Source of the DNA: a virus | Lineage: Duplodnaviria > Heunggongvirae > Uroviricota > Caudoviricetes | Virus record (IMG/VR): IMGVR_UViG_2703718784_000009 | Location: 1 to 4,406 of that record | Reading direction: 5' to 3' (one strand) | DNA length: 4,406 bases | Part shown: positions 1 through 4,406 of the stretch, piece by piece | Numbering within the stretch: position 1 is the stretch's first letter | Layout of the letters: every line of letters begins with the position of its first letter | Notes under the pieces: generated by a model | Seen by the model: the letters and a program-made list of their open reading frames with translations, nothing else | Told to the model about the DNA's origin: nothing | Databases searched by the model: none | Translations under genes and position numbers: made by a program

Positions 1-174
1 TGAGGATGAAATAATCCCGTTCAGCGGCGTCTGCCAGTCTGGGGCCGGTTGCATTATCCACGCCGGAGGTGGTGGGGGCTTCACGCACGGAGCCTGGACA
101 GGTGGCGTTGATCCGCAGGCGCTTACGACCAGCGGCAACGTCAGCGCGAAGAGTTTCATTTTCAGCTCTCGCAT
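1..174 (-). CDS. Rz1: Rz1 o-spanin (outer-membrane lipoprotein) embedded in the +1 frame of Rz; 3' end truncated by the window edge
   Basis: ATG at 174..172 (second in-frame ATG at 159..157), entirely inside Rz in a different frame. Translation [58 protein letters not shown]: signal peptide with lipobox (VSAC) followed by a proline-rich mature region, the hallmark of Rz1. Confidence 0.85.
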
Positions 175-394
175 CAGCTAATTCCCTCGAGTATTTTGCA
201 TCGAGCGCAGCAACATCGCGCTGGCGCACCTGCATATCAGTAATGGTTGCGTTTGCCAGCTCCAGCTCTCTGGCTTTTTTATCTCGCTGCGCTTTGTAGG
301 TGATGGCGTTATCGCGGTAATGATTCAGCCCCAGACTAAGCGCACCACAGGCCACCAGCAGGACAATAATCACCACACACAGAACACGGTTCAT
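1..394 (-). CDS. Rz: Rz i-spanin (inner-membrane spanin subunit); 3' end truncated by the window edge
   Basis: ATG at 394..392 preceded by a GAGGGGG Shine-Dalgarno; frame open to position 1 (131 codons in window). Translation [99 protein letters not shown]...[13 protein letters not shown]: N-terminal TM helix then coiled-coil region, near-colinear with phage lambda Rz as I recall it. Not listed in the ORF track because no stop lies in the window. Confidence 0.9.
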
Positions 395-401
395 ATCCCC
401 C

Positions 402-533
402 TCACCCCAGCATCCCCGACGAAGACAACATCATCCAGCCCAGGGAAAGAAAAATAGCAACCAGCATTAGTGAAAATGAAATGCCGACGATTACACAGAG
501 GATCTTCGCCAGCGTTATGAGCTTGTCTGACAT
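402..533 (-). CDS. hypothetical 43-aa hydrophobic peptide ([43 protein letters not shown])
   Basis: ATG at 533..531 with AGAGGA Shine-Dalgarno 6 nt upstream; stop TGA at 404..402, 7 nt before the Rz start. Almost entirely hydrophobic (one TM helix). Below the 60-aa cutoff of the ORF track. Same frame as the upstream ORF 546..728, separated only by a TGA. Confidence 0.3.
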
Positions 534-545
534 GCTTAATCCTCT

Positions 546-728
546 TCACGATTTCAACGCAATGACCAGTTTTGCCAGTCCATACAGCATCGGAGACACA
601 GCAATACCGACCGCCACCCACTTAATAGCAAAAGCCAGCGCTCTGCTGATGTCATCAGTTACAGGCGCTTTCAGTTCAAGGCCGTTTTTCATAGTCAACC
701 TCAACAGAATTCGTTTATACTTTTCCAT
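546..728 (-). CDS. hypothetical 60-aa small membrane protein, C-terminal TM helix (MEKYKRILLRLTMKNGLELKAPVTDDISRALAFAIKWVAVGIAVSPMLYGLAKLVIALKS)
   Basis: First ATG at 728..726 preceded by AAGGGAGAAC (purine-rich SD). The ORF-track start at 761 is a GTG lying inside the terminator hairpin, so the ATG is preferred. Stop TGA 548..546. Basic N-terminus, hydrophobic C-terminal segment. Confidence 0.45.
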   Translation of the reverse strand: MEKYKRILLRLTMKNGLELKAPVTDDISRALAFAIKWVAVGIAVSPMLYGLAKLVIALKS

Positions 729-761
729 GTTCTCCCTTGCCTTATCCAAGGTCAGAAACAC

Positions 762-800
762 AAAACCCCGCTTGCAGCCAACAAACGGGGTTTTTACTTT
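762..800. terminator. intrinsic (Rho-independent) terminator hairpin, bidirectional, stronger in the plus direction
   Basis: AAAACCCCG (762..770) pairs with CGGGGTTTT (786..794); loop has further internal pairing; followed on the plus strand by TTTTTACTTTTATT. On the minus strand the same hairpin is followed by UUUUGUGUUU. Lies between the endolysin stop (885) and the small ORF start (728). Confidence 0.6.
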
Positions 801-884
801 TATTCACTTAGTTTTTGTCAGTTCGCAGGATTTCGTGTTATCCGTCCGTGTGAGCAAACCGCATTTTTCAGCAAAATATTCTGC

Positions 885-1418
885 TTATCTGTCAATTCCC
901 CAGCACGCCAGCGCACTCTCCTGGTCGCGACGGGATACCTGACCGTAACAGTTGTTTGAGCGAATACGGCAGTCTCTGCCACCGTCCTTAATCCACCAGC
1001 GAATCGCTTCGCATGCTCCCCTGCGATCACCTGCATTAATTCGTCTGTAAAACGTCGACGGGAAACACTTACCGGGACCAATGTTGTACGGACAGAATGA
1101 CGCGATCCCCGCTTTCTGGGGTTCGGTCAGCGGCACTCTGATGTTTTTCTCCACCCACGCCAGCGCCTTATCACGCTCAATGGCGTTAACCTGGTCGCAT
1201 TTTTCCTTCGACAACTTCATGCCCGGAACGACAGGTTTGCCATCCACCATGATGGCACCACGGCAGATGGTCCAGATACCTGCACCATCACGGTATGCCG
1301 TGGTGTGGTTACCTTCCTTTTCATCCAGAAACTGGTCGAGAATTTCAGGCGCAGAAGCCCCTGCGGCAATCAGCGCCAGAACGGCAGCCGACAGGCCGTA
1401 TTTGATTTTTGCGTTCAT
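885..1418 (-). CDS. R: endolysin, T4-lysozyme-like muramidase (GH24) with N-terminal signal-arrest-release (SAR) domain
   Basis: 177-aa ORF, ATG 1418..1416, stop TAA 887..885. N-terminal weakly hydrophobic Gly/Ala-rich segment (YGLSAAVLALIAAGASA) typical of SAR endolysins. Catalytic E-x8-D-x5-T spacing present (E..GNHTTAYR D GAGIW T), as in T4 lysozyme and phage 21 R. No strong SD upstream of the ATG. Confidence 0.92.
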   Translation of the reverse strand: MNAKIKYGLSAAVLALIAAGASAPEILDQFLDEKEGNHTTAYRDGAGIWTICRGAIMVDGKPVVPGMKLSKEKCDQVNAIERDKALAWVEKNIRVPLTEPQKAGIASFCPYNIGPGKCFPSTFYRRINAGDRRGACEAIRWWIKDGGRDCRIRSNNCYGQVSRRDQESALACWGIDR

Positions 1419-1529
1419 GGATATTTATCAGGATTTATCGGTTCCGAATCCCTGGATATGTTAAGCCTTCACCCCGCCAGTGGTGGGCACTGGCCAGGGT
1501 ATGTCAATCTGATAAACACAGAGGTGACT

Positions 1530-1790
1530 ATGGATTATCCAAATCTACCAAAACAAACTTTTGCTGATTTAATCGCACTCAGGCAAGCAGTCGTAGCTCT
1601 AATCAACGTGTTGCCGGATGAGGAAAAGGAATTAGTTAAAGCAATTCTTAACAGAACTGCCGCCGATTTTTCATCATTCCCACTGACAGATGACCTTGCG
1701 GACCTTCCTGAATTAATTGCAGCGTCCGCCATTAAGCTTACTGAAGAGATTTACTCTCCTCAAAAGCCTTCACAAAATTCCTGCGAGTAA
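1530..1790 (+). CDS. hypothetical 86-aa acidic protein, convergent to the late operon (MDYPNLPKQTFADLIALRQAVVALINVLPDEEKELVKAILNRTAADFSSFPLTDDLADLPELIAASAIKLTEEIYSPQKPSQNSCE)
   Basis: ATG 1530..1532 preceded by GAGGTG (1521..1526); stop TAA 1788..1790; a strong intrinsic terminator follows about 20 nt downstream (1809..1845). Helix-like amphipathic composition; AT-rich codons (about 42% GC by hand count). The longer track ORF 1305..1790 starts at a GTG with no SD. The 3' end overlaps gene 1738..2373 by 53 nt on the opposite strand. Confidence 0.55.
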   Translation: MDYPNLPKQTFADLIALRQAVVALINVLPDEEKELVKAILNRTAADFSSFPLTDDLADLPELIAASAIKLTEEIYSPQKPSQNSCE

Positions 1791-2373
1791 CTTCAATGCA
1801 ATAATCGTAAAACGCCGCGAACTGCTCATCGCGGCGTTTTTCTTCAGGCCGCTGAAGATGCTCTTTCAACCGTGAAGCGCAGCTTAGATGCGCCGCGCGA
1901 TCAAGAATAGTTTCTTTCATTTCATCTGCTGCAAGCACCTCATTTTTTGTTGGGGTGCTTTTTTTCAATTCAGCGATATAGCACTCCAGTTTTTCAATGC
2001 GTGATTCAATATCATCGTTTTCTGACCGCAATGCCGTCGGTGGCGTCTTCAGAGAACCAGTAATTATTCCCGGTAGTTTTCCTCTGTAGGTTATCAACAC
2101 ATCCTGCGCCTCTAAAATTATGGGGCGCTTTTCCGGCGACTGCTCATCCCCTTCACATAAAGCGGCAGCAATATCCATGAAAAACTGCTTCGCCTGTTTT
2201 TTCGCCTCAGCTTCGTAAAATTCCAGCGTGGCACCTTCAGTACGGTCAAGACTAATCGCCACATTTGGCAACAACAGTGACGGATACCCACCAATTTCCA
2301 GTGCCACAGTAACAGTAATCTTATCCGGGTAATTATTTATCCCTTTAACAACCAGTTCGTATTTTTTCTTCAT
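1738..2373 (-). CDS. hypothetical 211-aa soluble protein inserted between holin and endolysin; function unknown
   Basis: ATG 2373..2371 lies 4 nt after the holin stop (TAA 2380..2378) with GGGGAGAG SD inside the holin 3' end, i.e. tight translational coupling. Stop TAA 1740..1738. No TM segment; the C-terminal half looks helical/coiled-coil (DDIESRIEKLECYIAELKK...). I do not recognise the family. Confidence 0.8.
   Translation of the reverse strand: MKKKYELVVKGINNYPDKITVTVALEIGGYPSLLLPNVAISLDRTEGATLEFYEAEAKKQAKQFFMDIAAALCEGDEQSPEKRPIILEAQDVLITYRGKLPGIITGSLKTPPTALRSENDDIESRIEKLECYIAELKKSTPTKNEVLAADEMKETILDRAAHLSCASRLKEHLQRPEEKRRDEQFAAFYDYCIEVTRRNFVKAFEESKSLQ
1809..1845 (+). terminator. intrinsic terminator for the plus-strand ORF 1530..1790, embedded in the coding sequence of the minus-strand gene 1738..2373
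   Basis: AAAACGCCGCGA (1809..1820) pairs perfectly with TCGCGGCGTTTT (1829..1840), 8-nt loop, then TTTTTCTTC. Weaker in the minus direction (followed there by UUUUACG). Confidence 0.6.
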
Positions 2374-2377
2374 CGCT

Positions 2378-2593
2378 TTACTCTCCCCGCGCCGCCTTAC
2401 GCCGGTCCTCTCTGATTTTGAAATACAGGTTAGTCAGATATGTCAGCAGCCCAAACAGCAGACTCCCCAGCACGCCTATTGCCGCCCACTGAGACGGGGA
2501 AACCCTGTCCAGCAACTGCAGGAACCAGTAGCCCGTTCCCACCGCTGACGTGGTGTATGACACACCTGTTGTGATTTTTTCCATCTGGTACAT
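2378..2593 (-). CDS. S: class II holin (pinholin), phage 21 S-like, with dual-start motif
   Basis: 71-aa [74 protein letters not shown]: two TM segments plus charged C-terminal tail; closely resembles S21 / E. coli EssD as I recall them. Two in-frame ATGs (2593 and 2584). GGGAG SD upstream. Confidence 0.9.
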
Positions 2594-2668
2594 ACCCCGT
2601 CTCCCGTACTCGGAAGCTCACAACAACAAAAGGGCCACCAGCTCTTTACTGATGACCCTGACTCACCG

Positions 2669-2959
2669 TTACAGCATTGTGCCCGATTCTGGCTGTGTGT
2701 CTGTCATATCCGTCACCGGTGGCTCCGGCTGAATATCACCATTTTCCGTGGTGACATCTTCCGCCTGTGGTTCCGGAAGCAGTTCCGGGGATGGTTCCGG
2801 CTGTGCACCAAGCAATTCATCCAGAATGGCATCCACTTCTGCATCAAGACGCGCCTCAAGGTTCTGCCGAAGTTGCTGTTTCAGTGCGCTCCGGACTTCT
2901 TCAGAGCGCAGGACTTCCTTCACTGCCTCAGCAGTGACCAGCGATTTTATTTCTGACAT
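2669..2959 (-). CDS. hypothetical 96-aa acidic protein with helical N-terminal half and Pro/Glu-rich C-terminal tail
   Basis: First ATG at 2959..2957 (the track ORF extends to a GTG at 3133 but overlaps the neighbouring ORF). Stop TAA 2671..2669. Protein-like sequence MSEIKSLVTAEAVKEVLRSEEVRSALKQQLRQNLEARLDAEVDAILDELLGAQPEPSPELLPEPQ..., whereas the opposite-strand ORF 2748..2975 is serine-rich low complexity. Weak SD (GAGAAAA). Confidence 0.55.
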   Translation of the reverse strand: MSEIKSLVTAEAVKEVLRSEEVRSALKQQLRQNLEARLDAEVDAILDELLGAQPEPSPELLPEPQAEDVTTENGDIQPEPPVTDMTDTQPESGTML

Positions 2960-2996
2960 AGGATTTTCTCGTTGAAAGGTGTTGTCAAGAAAGTGA

Positions 2997-3179
2997 CTAC
3001 GGAATGAGCGGATCTTCGGGTTTGCTTCCGGCTGACTGACTGGCGCTGATTTTCTCTGCGGCCCTTTTATCAATCTGCCTGCGCCAGAAATCGCGCACTG
3101 CCCTGTACCCACCCGAAAGAAGATACATAACACAGACTGCCGTACAGAAGTACAGCATCACCTGATGAACAAATGTCAT
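2997..3179 (-). CDS. hypothetical 60-aa small membrane protein, N-terminal TM helix and basic tail (MTFVHQVMLYFCTAVCVMYLLSGGYRAVRDFWRRQIDKRAAEKISASQSAGSKPEDPLIP)
   Basis: ATG 3179..3177, stop TAG 2999..2997. No SD of its own, but its ATG overlaps the TGA stop of an upstream 14-codon leader ORF (ATGA overlap), which follows another 14-codon ORF that has a perfect GGAGGT SD (see findings). N-terminal hydrophobic helix with positive residues after it. Confidence 0.45.
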   Translation of the reverse strand: MTFVHQVMLYFCTAVCVMYLLSGGYRAVRDFWRRQIDKRAAEKISASQSAGSKPEDPLIP

Positions 3180-3276
3180 AGTTTCTTACCGTTATGGTTG
3201 ACAATGAGAACTGTTTTCATTTAAAAAACCGATATACGAAAGCATCTTTTCTTTACATTCTCCATTGGGATTACCT

Positions 3277-3313
3277 CCGCCAGCTTCCGTTCCTGCCGCT
3301 GGCGGCTTTTTTT
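3277..3313 (+). terminator. intrinsic terminator oriented for plus-strand transcription (antisense to the late operon)
   Basis: CCGCCAGC (3277..3284) pairs with GCTGGCGG (3298..3305), 13-nt loop, followed by C plus TTTTTTT (3307..3313). No U-tract in the minus direction, so it is unidirectional. Confidence 0.55.
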
Positions 3314-3318
3314 GCCGG

Positions 3319-4406
3319 TTATGATGATGCCCGGCTTTCGTTAACTTTGACTGTGACCGTATCAAGCAGTACCGGATACGTCGCTTTTGCCCCCGTGATA
3401 TCTGTCAGCGTCAGCGTATCTGCTGTAAAGTCATCATTTGTCCACATCACAAGGTCAAACGCCGTCTGCTCTGTACCATCAATCACCGGAACGACTCTTT
3501 CGCTGTTATTTCCCGCAAAGCGGAAAACAACCGTATGCCAGTTATGGTCAAACGCACCAAATGTACCCAGTTGTGCATTCGACGTGCCCTTGTGGTGCAT
3601 AAGATTCAGATTTGATGCATCCGTCTGAAGGAAGAATGATGCCAGCATACTGTTTGCTGCCGCGCCTGACGCCCACTGCGACACCGGCCAGTAGAGACCA
3701 AAGACAAACTGTCCGTTCACCAGTTCGCTTCCATCCGGAATTTTGAACCGTACGGCAATTTCACCCCCCTTGCTGAGAAGATTTTTTGCCTCCTCCACTG
3801 CAACAGTACGGAACATTTTCCAGGACATCAGTTTACCGGGCTGTTTTTCCAGTCGCAGCGCTTTCCGTCCACCGTCATCAGTCACAGTGCCTTTGCCGCC
3901 GGAAGCACCCCACTGCTGCTCTGTCAATGCACCATTTCCACTGTTCGCATCATATTCAGCCACCGTCCTGGTACTGCTCACGGCCTCATCATGATCAGTA
4001 CCAGCAACACCGCCATCCTGCGGTTTCTCAACATCCGGTGTCCCCGGACTGACAGGAGTTGTACCACCCGACTGCGGTGCGCTCTGCCCGGTAAGGAACG
4101 ATAATGTCCGCCCGGCGTACTGCAAAATGGCACCTGCCAGGCGGTCTGAAACAAGGCCTCTTCGCGCCCATGAACTGAAGTGCGTTTTACGATCGGCTGA
4201 CGTCCAGTTACTGGCAGTGCGTGACGCAGCGCCATAGTATCCCGCCGGGATAATGTCCCGATCTTCTGACGGCTCGTTTGTCGGCACATTCACACCATGC
4301 TCATCCGTCATCAACGGCACAAAGTGAATATTCTGCGCAGCTTTGCCTTTATACCCACCGTAAACCGCCTCATACGGCGCTGCATACCTTTCCTTCCAGT
4401 AGTACG
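3319..4406 (-). CDS. large accessory ORF of unknown function, C-terminal 362 codons only (5' end beyond the right window edge)
   Basis: Stop TAA 3321..3319; frame stays open to position 4406 (the track start at 4320 is a GTG, and the upstream codons ...YYWKERYAAPYEAVYGGYKGKAAQNIHFVPL are stop-free and protein-like). Contains a Gly/Ser/Thr/Pro-rich linker followed by a beta-rich C-terminal domain (FGLYWPVSQW...WHTVVFRFAGNNSERVVPVIDG...), possibly jelly-roll/lectin-like. It sits upstream of the holin in the operon; the antiterminator Q is not in the window. Confidence 0.85.
   Translation of the reverse strand, partial: YYWKERYAAPYEAVYGGYKGKAAQNIHFVPLMTDEHGVNVPTNEPSEDRDIIPAGYYGAASRTASNWTSADRKTHFSSWARRGLVSDRLAGAILQYAGRTLSFLTGQSAPQSGGTTPVSPGTPDVEKPQDGGVAGTDHDEAVSSTRTVAEYDANSGNGALTEQQWGASGGKGTVTDDGGRKALRLEKQPGKLMSWKMFRTVAVEEAKNLLSKGGEIAVRFKIPDGSELVNGQFVFGLYWPVSQWASGAAANSMLASFFLQTDASNLNLMHHKGTSNAQLGTFGAFDHNWHTVVFRFAGNNSERVVPVIDGTEQTAFDLVMWTNDDFTADTLTLTDITGAKATYPVLLDTVTVKVNESRASS

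Follow-up and report, generated by a model that had tools for sequence, protein, structure and literature searches.

An 86-residue reading frame opposing the lysis genes of an Escherichia coli prophage, and the conserved hairpin within its convergent neighbor

The DNA considered here, positions 1 to 4,406 of the IMG/VR virus record IMGVR_UViG_2703718784_000009 (4,406 nucleotides; hereafter the window), is the lysis region of a lambdoid Escherichia coli prophage of the P21/Qin/Stx type, with genes for a holin, a YdfR/DUF1327 fusion protein, lysozyme R and Rz. All of its phage genes are carried on the minus strand, which is the late strand, with the exception of the open reading frame (ORF) termed ORF86, the sole plus-strand gene. 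ORF86 lies between R and the YdfR fusion gene, converges on the latter, and is followed, beginning 19 nucleotides (nt) after its stop codon, by a hairpin that resides within the opposing coding sequence. The coordinates of these elements and of the neighboring genes are collected in Table 1.

Table 1. Features of the window, those of the ORF86 locus first; lengths are in amino acids (aa), nucleotides (nt) or base pairs (bp).
Feature	Positions	Strand	Remarks
Shine-Dalgarno sequence of ORF86	1521..1526	+	GAGGTG; GAGG core 5 nt before ATG
ORF86	1530..1790	+	86 aa; ATG at 1530, stop ends at 1790; phrog_2572; WP_001625288.1, 'hypothetical protein' in the Prokaryotic Genome Annotation Pipeline (PGAP)
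211-aa YdfR/DUF1327-family protein	1738..2373	-	Pfam DUF1327
3′ overlap of ORF86 and the 211-aa gene	1738..1790	both	53 bp
Hairpin and U-tract	1809..1845	either strand	Stem 1809-1820/1829-1840, 12 bp; probably a bidirectional intrinsic terminator inside the opposing coding sequence
Allele-specific segment	1847..1958	both	112 bp; ~28 bp instead in most related loci
Second terminator-like hairpin	1933..1967	+	AAGCACCTCA/TGGGGTGCTT plus TTTTTCAATT; inside the 211-aa coding sequence
Candidate weak sigma-70 promoter	1434..1462	+	TTTATC (1434-1439), 17 nt, TATGTT (1457-1462); predicted
Leader stem-loop	1472..1499	either strand	GCCAGTG-GTGGG-CACTGGC with outer CCCC/GGG stem; between candidate promoter and ORF86
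Holin S, class II (P21-type)	2378..2593	-	Pfam Phage_holin_2_1
Lysozyme R	885..1418	-	Divergent from ORF86; Pfam Phage_lysozyme and annotation
Two small ORFs between R and Rz	402-761	-	71 aa, phrog_1115; 43 aa, phrog_4906
Rz (start only)	downstream end of the late-strand gene order	-
DUF826 protein	2959..2669	-
DUF1378 protein	3179..2997	-
DUF6645 protein	4320..3319	-

A preliminary description of this DNA had proposed a plus-strand ORF preceded by a GAGGTG Shine-Dalgarno sequence; its coordinates are confirmed, and both the frame and the ribosome-binding site are conserved across alleles. The encoded protein matches phrog_2572 over its full length (E = 3.6e-50; residues 1-86 aligned to all 86 profile positions). 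Close relatives, those with at least 81% identity, come exclusively from Escherichia and Shigella, and a scan of one genome per species recovered ORF86 in E. coli alone. A profile search of 1.8 billion representatives returned relatives of 89-93 aa (P0070, P0071), and a metagenome scan added one diverged allele (L140); alleles that are 41-52% identical are found at the P0070/P0071 loci, in L140 and in Salmonella enterica genomes. Two large repeat proteins from the same profile search (P0072, P0075) look like spurious repeat matches and were set aside.

When the six frames are compared across alleles, only the plus-strand frame of ORF86 is free of stop codons in all of them. Among alleles 41-52% identical, the BLOSUM62 sums of this frame are 166, 174 and 209, versus at most 60, 120 and 147, respectively, in the other five frames, and the fewest changes between diverged alleles fall at codon position 2. 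A Shine-Dalgarno sequence precedes the start in every allele, either GAGGTG or TAAGGA, the latter standing before an ATG or GTG start in L140 and the Salmonella alleles. Length variants within E. coli arise from in-frame insertions and deletions, and in this species there are 13 synonymous changes at 49 sites and 19 non-synonymous changes at 158 sites, giving a ratio of non-synonymous to synonymous polymorphism (pN/pS) of ~0.46. ORF86 is intact in 105 of 114 loci. Two observations weigh against a constrained gene: the start codon is lost (ATG to ACG) in 7 loci, and the two main E. coli alleles differ at 6 first, 1 second and 5 third codon positions, a near-neutral pattern. From the open frame, the BLOSUM62 sums, codon position 2, the Shine-Dalgarno sequences, the in-frame length changes and pN/pS, we nevertheless conclude that ORF86, judged by its sequence, encodes a genuine protein.

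The ORF86 protein is acidic, and its predicted structure comprises three helices and a disordered tail (AlphaFold2, two models, predicted local distance difference test (pLDDT) 66-68). Searches of Pfam, NCBIfam, PADLOC and the sequences of the PDB gave no match that would indicate a function, and neither did Foldseek against the PDB and BFVD, although fold matches are not meaningful for models with a pLDDT of 66-68. The literature searched, including that on DUF1327, ydfR, the PhiR phages and the protein accessions, holds nothing about ORF86. In the record of phage PhiR5_1 (PV340545.1), the ORF is annotated as a 'DUF1823 containing protein'; DUF1823 was ruled out, there being no Pfam family at E <= 0.01, and the annotation looks wrong.

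The opposing 211-aa protein consists of an N-terminal DUF1327/YdfR domain (~2038-2373; Pfam DUF1327 on residues 1-112, E = 4.6e-43) fused to a coiled-coil C-terminal module (1738-2037), and it is the latter that carries the hairpin. The module also exists as a stand-alone gene of 66-73 aa in E. coli (L011 and P0078, the latter 67 aa) and Salmonella (P0076/P0077), and no known relatives of it were found outside these prophages. In the Salmonella prophages it forms a gene of its own, 73 aa long and coupled to the spanin gene. Its convergent partner there is ORF93; the two overlap by 59 bp, the hairpin is the same, and the terminase genes come directly afterwards. The overlap of 53 bp initially reported for the window is confirmed, and a convergent overlap of 53-59 bp is kept across alleles, the longer value being that of the Salmonella and L140 alleles. 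Within the overlap, the tail of ORF86 is better conserved than that of the late-strand protein, a sign that, of the two readings, the final ~20 residues of the late protein are under the weaker constraint. Beyond the hairpin, the exchange of the 112-bp allele-specific segment for ~28 bp keeps the late-strand frame, with proteins of 211 versus 183 aa. The second terminator-like hairpin (1933-1960; -15.5 kcal/mol, z = -3.6) falls in this segment, ~90 nt beyond the first on the ORF86 strand, and is without a U-tail on the late strand.

The N-terminal 112 residues place the 211-aa protein in the same family as YdfR of the K-12 Qin prophage, and the ORF86 locus of E. coli REL606 and CFT073 is Qin itself; K-12 YdfR differs in being 103 aa long. 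On the K-12 map, ydfR presumably lies directly beside rrrQ, with neither ORF86 nor the coiled-coil extension. The YdfR-family gene of STEC2018-607, REL606 and CFT073 (L001, L152, L153) carries the PGAP label of a pseudogene ('missing C-terminus'), yet its ORF is intact at 211 or 183 aa and the C-terminal module is conserved. The pseudogene call is probably an annotation artefact stemming from comparison with the short YdfR, so that in practical terms this flag on the YdfR fusion looks as wrong as the DUF1823 label. YdfR has been reported to bind the N-terminal domain of RNase E and perhaps RNA (PMC13232886).

The hairpin had been described as a near-perfect stem with a U-tract inside the 211-aa gene. 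Both are present, and the 12-bp stem is in fact perfect, closing an 8-nt loop and leading into TTTTTCTTC up to position 1845. Together with a small adjoining hairpin, it folds at -28.3 kcal/mol on the plus strand (z = -5.0; 0 of 200 shuffles equally stable), and the minus-strand fold of the region has z = -4.35 against shuffles; simple arithmetic puts the expected number of perfect 12-bp repeats with a short loop at ~0.002 per 4.4 kb. On the late strand the structure is translated, within the peptide ...EEKRRDEQFAAFYD..., and its arms AAA CGC CGC GA and TC GCG GCG TTT are read as K-R-R-D and F-A-A-F. A scan for consensus terminators did not list the 1809-1840 hairpin, because the A/U pairs were counted as stem and too few T residues were left after it. 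If the GC core CGCCGCGA/TCGCGGCG is taken as the stem, the tail is TTTTTCTTC in the window and TTTTTTTTC, with eight U, in the commonest allele. The ORF86 strand shows the sequence features of a Rho-independent terminator: a GC-rich stem-loop, a U-run directly after it, and a position 3′ of the stop codon. Its U-tail scores are 4.3-5.4 in the E. coli alleles and 3.3 in Salmonella. Rfam contains no family that matches either the hairpin (1809-1845) or the leader upstream of ORF86.

Comparison of alleles shows the structure to be conserved. All 10 distinct variants, whether of E. coli, Salmonella or metagenomic origin, keep the 8-bp GC-rich core paired, and the hairpin is read through by the late-strand gene in each allele. 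Single changes in the hairpin within E. coli are synonymous for the late-strand protein and produce wobbles or one mismatch. L140 has two compensatory pairs, G-C to A-U and G-C to C-G, which convert CGC CGC/GCG GCG (RR/AA) into CGC CAC/GTG GCG (RH/VA); in this allele, pairing is retained at the expense of amino-acid changes (R to H, A to V) in the opposing protein. Since these pairs come from a single lineage and 65 of 500 column shuffles of the ten variants reach the same covariation, which is not significant and tells against the structural argument, statistical covariation is not claimed. When the late-strand protein is recoded synonymously, the observed fold beats 99.8% of recodings for the window, 97-99% for the majority allele and L140, and 90-93% for the Salmonella type. 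The expectation that the hairpin would be conserved in homologs of the 211-aa gene is thus borne out for its core and by recoding, but not by the shuffle test of covariation.

Taken together, these features make it probable, though by no means certain, that ORF86 is a genuine small-protein gene on a cassette of the moron type and that the hairpin is its Rho-independent terminator. The cassette lies antisense in the late (lysis) operon of lambdoid prophages, with the YdfR-family gene on one side and lysozyme R on the other. The hairpin of 12 bp and its U-tract would serve to end the ORF86 transcript and to stop plus-strand transcription from entering the YdfR gene, the holin gene and beyond in antisense. 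The late-strand gene continues through the hairpin, with its arms translated as KRR(D)...(F)AAF, and ends ~23 codons past it, within the 3′ end of ORF86. Given the A's before and the U's after the hairpin, an unmodified RNA polymerase on the late strand would probably be stopped as well, whereas during lytic growth a Q-antiterminated polymerase would ignore it. What the sequences establish is that ORF86 is coding, that the structure is conserved and that the distribution is cassette-like; termination itself, the promoter, the time of expression and the role of the protein are inferred.

Stability of the hairpin on the two strands bears on which transcript it serves. Owing to G.U pairs, the late-strand RNA is the more stable in 4 of 4 alleles (late strand/ORF86 strand: -20.8/-19.6, -18.7/-14.6, -24.3/-19.7 and -14.5/-12.4 kcal/mol), and 2 of 3 hairpin substitutions among E. 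coli haplotypes retain G.U only there. The U-tail of that strand scores 3.3 in E. coli and L140, in L140 better than that of the ORF86 strand, and ~128 genomes match the hairpin region only, keeping the hairpin but not ORF86. These points count against a terminator dedicated to ORF86. They would be expected if the hairpin were selected mainly for the late-strand RNA, either as a terminator or attenuator acting on non-antiterminated polymerase before R/Rz or as a 3′ stabilizer or processing site of the holin-YdfR transcripts, with the end of the ORF86 transcript incidental. We regard this as unlikely. In the alleles of E. coli and Salmonella, it is the ORF86 strand that has the longer U-run (up to eight U versus UUUUACGAUUAUU), and termination on the late strand would yield a stop-less mRNA of the very gene that holds the hairpin. 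In addition, the hairpin of the L148-type loci is likewise downstream of a convergent gene, and two other single substitutions (L011, L148) retain a wobble only on the ORF86 strand. Of the original proposal that the hairpin was selected to end the ORF86 transcript, the conserved structure and the best U-tail, that of the ORF86 strand, speak in favor; the at least equal stability and the usable U-tail of the late strand do not, so that ending this transcript is just one of two directions in which the hairpin may act.

Most simply, the hairpin can be read as an intrinsic terminator that works in both directions, such as lie between convergent genes, overrun here by one of the two ORFs. Such terminators, seen between convergent bacterial genes by SEnd-seq and Term-seq, comprise a GC-rich hairpin with an A-tract and a U-tract and can be used from both sides. 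The hairpin studied here has the same design, a single GC-rich hairpin between an A-tract and a U-tract, and differs in that one ORF runs through it and 70 nt beyond.

With respect to the start of an ORF86 transcript, no sigma-70 site with at least 9/12 matches lies upstream of the gene in E. coli or Salmonella. The candidate TTTATC-17-TATGTT has a position weight matrix (PWM) score of 6.82; 17 sites of at least 6.8 occur on the two strands of the window (~1 per 500 nt), and the candidate is not significant alone. It is part of a leader of ~80 nt (1419-1500) that lies between R and ORF86 and contains two TTTATC repeats 10 nt apart as well as the stem-loop. The leader is also found upstream of R in roughly half of E. 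coli genomes (2710/5426 complete genomes) and in Stx phages that lack ORF86, a distribution that, like the weakness of the candidate, argues against a dedicated promoter. In L140 and Salmonella (TATTGT), the candidate hexamers and their spacing recur while the spacer has diverged, and among E. coli haplotypes the hexamers are invariant and the spacer variable. The leader is likewise upstream of Salmonella ORF93, with no adjacent lysozyme gene. A counterpart of the stem-loop precedes ORF93 (loop GTGGGAC); it is more stable on the late strand, and that of the window also folds better there. A sigma-54 site and boxes for integration host factor, Fur and DnaA were considered by eye in the leader and dropped as unconserved. 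Because the leader is present without ORF86 in phages and genomes, its conservation may serve R or the late mRNA rather than an ORF86 promoter.

Expression in the lysogen and an antisense switch between lysogeny and lytic growth had been suggested for this locus. Since the promoter is weak and the leader also occurs in genomes without ORF86, these ideas are a conjecture, plausible but unsupported. It could instead be that ORF86 is real but not a lysogen-expressed moron, being promoterless and either silent or transcribed only by read-through or in lytic growth, and kept by linkage to the lysis genes. This seems rather improbable to us. The missing consensus promoter, the thousands of genomes that have the leader and candidate promoter without ORF86, the start-less loci and the near-neutral divergence of the two main E. 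coli alleles are all compatible with it; less so are the retention of hexamers and 17-nt spacing across alleles while the spacer diverges, the conservation of Shine-Dalgarno sequence, ORF and terminator between E. coli and Salmonella, and the intactness of ORF86 in REL606 and CFT073, where the Qin prophage that carries it is defective. As a precedent for antisense effects, the lambda oop RNA and the cII transcript are convergent, with a 3′ overlap of ~50-60 nt and the potential for antisense control. The convergent overlap here is of the same size, but ORF86 and its 211-aa partner are both protein-coding, and an RNase III or antisense effect at this locus is only hypothetical.

The distribution of ORF86 is that of a cassette. 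The GC content is 40-43% over positions 1400-1800, versus 55-56% in R and 53-55% in the holin region. In phage Stx2a_WGPS2, a 114-aa YdfR gene is separated from R by just 50 nt, and there is no cargo between them. Relative to this phage, the extra DNA of the window spans ~1471-2037, and its two flanks carry the copies of an imperfect direct repeat (GCCAGTGGTGG, 1476-1486; GCCGTCGGTGG, 2023-2033), of which Stx2a_WGPS2 has one copy, GGCCAGCGGTGG, at the junction. This arrangement suggests insertion or deletion through short-homology recombination, insertion here and deletion in the cargo-less phages being equally possible. In Stx2 phage 86 (L141, 1629-1943), the slot of ORF86 is occupied by an unrelated 104-aa plus-strand ORF belonging to no Pfam family, and the C-terminus of the YdfR protein (268 aa) differs too. 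In L148-type loci, the coiled-coil gene is kept as far as the hairpin, beyond which lies another convergent gene of at least 142 aa (1179-1604), again without a Pfam family and with the same hairpin. The slot is a hotspot for the exchange of paired cargo. Among complete E. coli genomes, 294 of 5426 carry ORF86 (~5%; ORF86-only query), REL606 and CFT073 among them; in REL606 the gene occupies 1612365-1612625 on the plus strand of NC_012967.1. BL21 and the inducible phages PhiR5_1 and 2H10 are further carriers. In the Salmonella prophages with the ORF93 pair (L146, L147; 497-1225), a gene for a pertussis-like ADP-ribosyltransferase subunit (Pfam Pertussis_S1) was also observed, downstream of the antiterminator gene.

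Morons were defined from phages HK97 and HK022 ('The moron comes of age', PMC3594210), and the ORF86 cassette shares with them its status as extra DNA relative to close relatives, its lower GC content, a single small ORF with a Shine-Dalgarno sequence and factor-independent terminator, and its site in the late operon. It is unlike them in having only a weak candidate promoter, in that its terminator is inside an opposing late coding sequence rather than in an intergenic gap, and in that it travels with the 3′ part of the opposing gene. The identification of ORF86 as a moron is thus backed by low GC content, presence and absence among relatives, other cargo in the same slot and an in silico terminator, and falls short at the promoter; going by sequence, the cassette appears to fit the published description apart from promoter and expression. 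The element is of an ordinary kind, and ORF86 is an uncharacterised addition to the prophage moron class that opens no long-standing question. If the reading as a moron-type gene is correct, ORF86 represents an uncharacterised family of small proteins among the prophage accessory genes of E. coli B/REL606, CFT073, several Shiga toxin-producing E. coli and Salmonella prophages. The unusual twist would be the terminator embedded in an opposing coding sequence that it visibly seems to shape, a clear instance of an RNA hairpin constraining protein sequence through its KRR...AAF arms, with compensatory change seen as the coupled R to H and A to V.

The lambda gene bor, placed between Rz and cos, offers a parallel in position. 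ORF86 is similarly antisense to the late operon in the lysis region, and the Salmonella gene pair is situated between spanin and terminase genes, where lambda has bor. A relationship to Bor itself is not upheld: ORF86 has no sequence or family similarity to it and no match in Pfam, NCBIfam or the PDB. Bor is an outer-membrane lipoprotein (PMC3594210), whereas direct reading of the ORF86 N-terminus, MDYPNLPKQTFADL, reveals no signal peptide or lipobox, and the protein is acidic and predicted to be helical. Expression in the lysogen has been shown for bor and is conjectural for ORF86.

Conceivably, ORF86 and the coiled-coil C-terminal module could form a cognate two-protein system. In one candidate arrangement, a late effector, often fused to the RNase E-binding YdfR domain, would be opposed by a constitutively expressed antagonist, and convergent transcripts that overlap across a common bidirectional terminator, itself embedded in coding sequence, would hard-wire their mutually exclusive expression. 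The diverged allele pairs of E. coli, L140 and Salmonella would then reflect co-evolution of the partners. This idea is speculative and, in our estimation, quite unlikely to be right. As to a toxin-antitoxin or polymorphic effector-immunity pair, PADLOC and Pfam showed no similarity to known toxin, antitoxin or defense families, and in L148 the E. coli-type module, as far as the hairpin, has a different convergent gene for a partner, which indicates that co-occurrence is not obligate.

There is very little to recommend the notion that the hairpin arises by chance from the protein sequence, or that it marks a conserved junction of recombination and has no function as RNA. Recoded sequences do still fold at -7 to -13 kcal/mol, because KRR...AAF is reverse-complement symmetric, the mosaic breakpoint lies directly beyond the hairpin, and the shuffle test is non-significant; yet the symmetry of the peptide itself demands explanation, the compensatory changes that preserve pairing in L140 are non-synonymous, three alleles rank within the most stable 0.2-3% of their recodings, and the stem is followed by a U-tract. 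Least credible of all is that the 65-aa minus-strand ORF at 1535..1732 is the translated frame and ORF86 its shadow: the two share third codon positions, so that E. coli polymorphism (14 synonymous and 18 non-synonymous changes, versus 13 and 19 for ORF86) does not discriminate between them, and the 65-aa frame is mostly open in several alleles, but its start is unconserved (ATG is confined to the E. coli alleles, some haplotypes have TTG, and L140 and Salmonella lack a start), it is interrupted by a stop in Salmonella allele L143, its BLOSUM sums between alleles are below those of ORF86, it has neither a Shine-Dalgarno sequence nor a family match in Pfam, NCBIfam or PHROGs, and its Ser/Ala-rich composition is typical of antisense frames. 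The 65-aa ORF was rejected on its start and the Salmonella stop, and the preference for ORF86 as the coding frame is upheld by the comparison of BLOSUM sums, starts and stops across alleles.

Several other observations concern the remainder of the lysis region. The two small ORFs between R and Rz both encode hydrophobic proteins with no assigned function, and in other relatives this slot holds an antirepressor gene (ant). Positions 762-794, which follow R closely on its downstream side and adjoin the next small ORF, form a GC-rich hairpin of 13-14 bp, AAAACCCCGCTTG/CAAACGGGGTTTT, with T-runs on either side, which looks like a second terminator of the bidirectional type within the late operon; a weak Rfam match to the rimP leader (E = 0.19) corresponds to this same hairpin. 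On the plus strand of the gap between the DUF6645 and DUF1378 genes (3198-3313), a good promoter-like site, TTGACA-18-TAAAAA (PWM score 8.9), is followed after ~65 nt by a terminator-like hairpin, CTGCCGCTGGCGG plus CTTTTTTT. This segment has no match in Rfam and could specify a small RNA of ~80 nt on the antisense strand. Finally, the gap between the DUF826 gene and holin S contains a terminator-like hairpin on the late strand (2631-2659), one of several such sites in the late operon that a Q-modified polymerase would need to pass.

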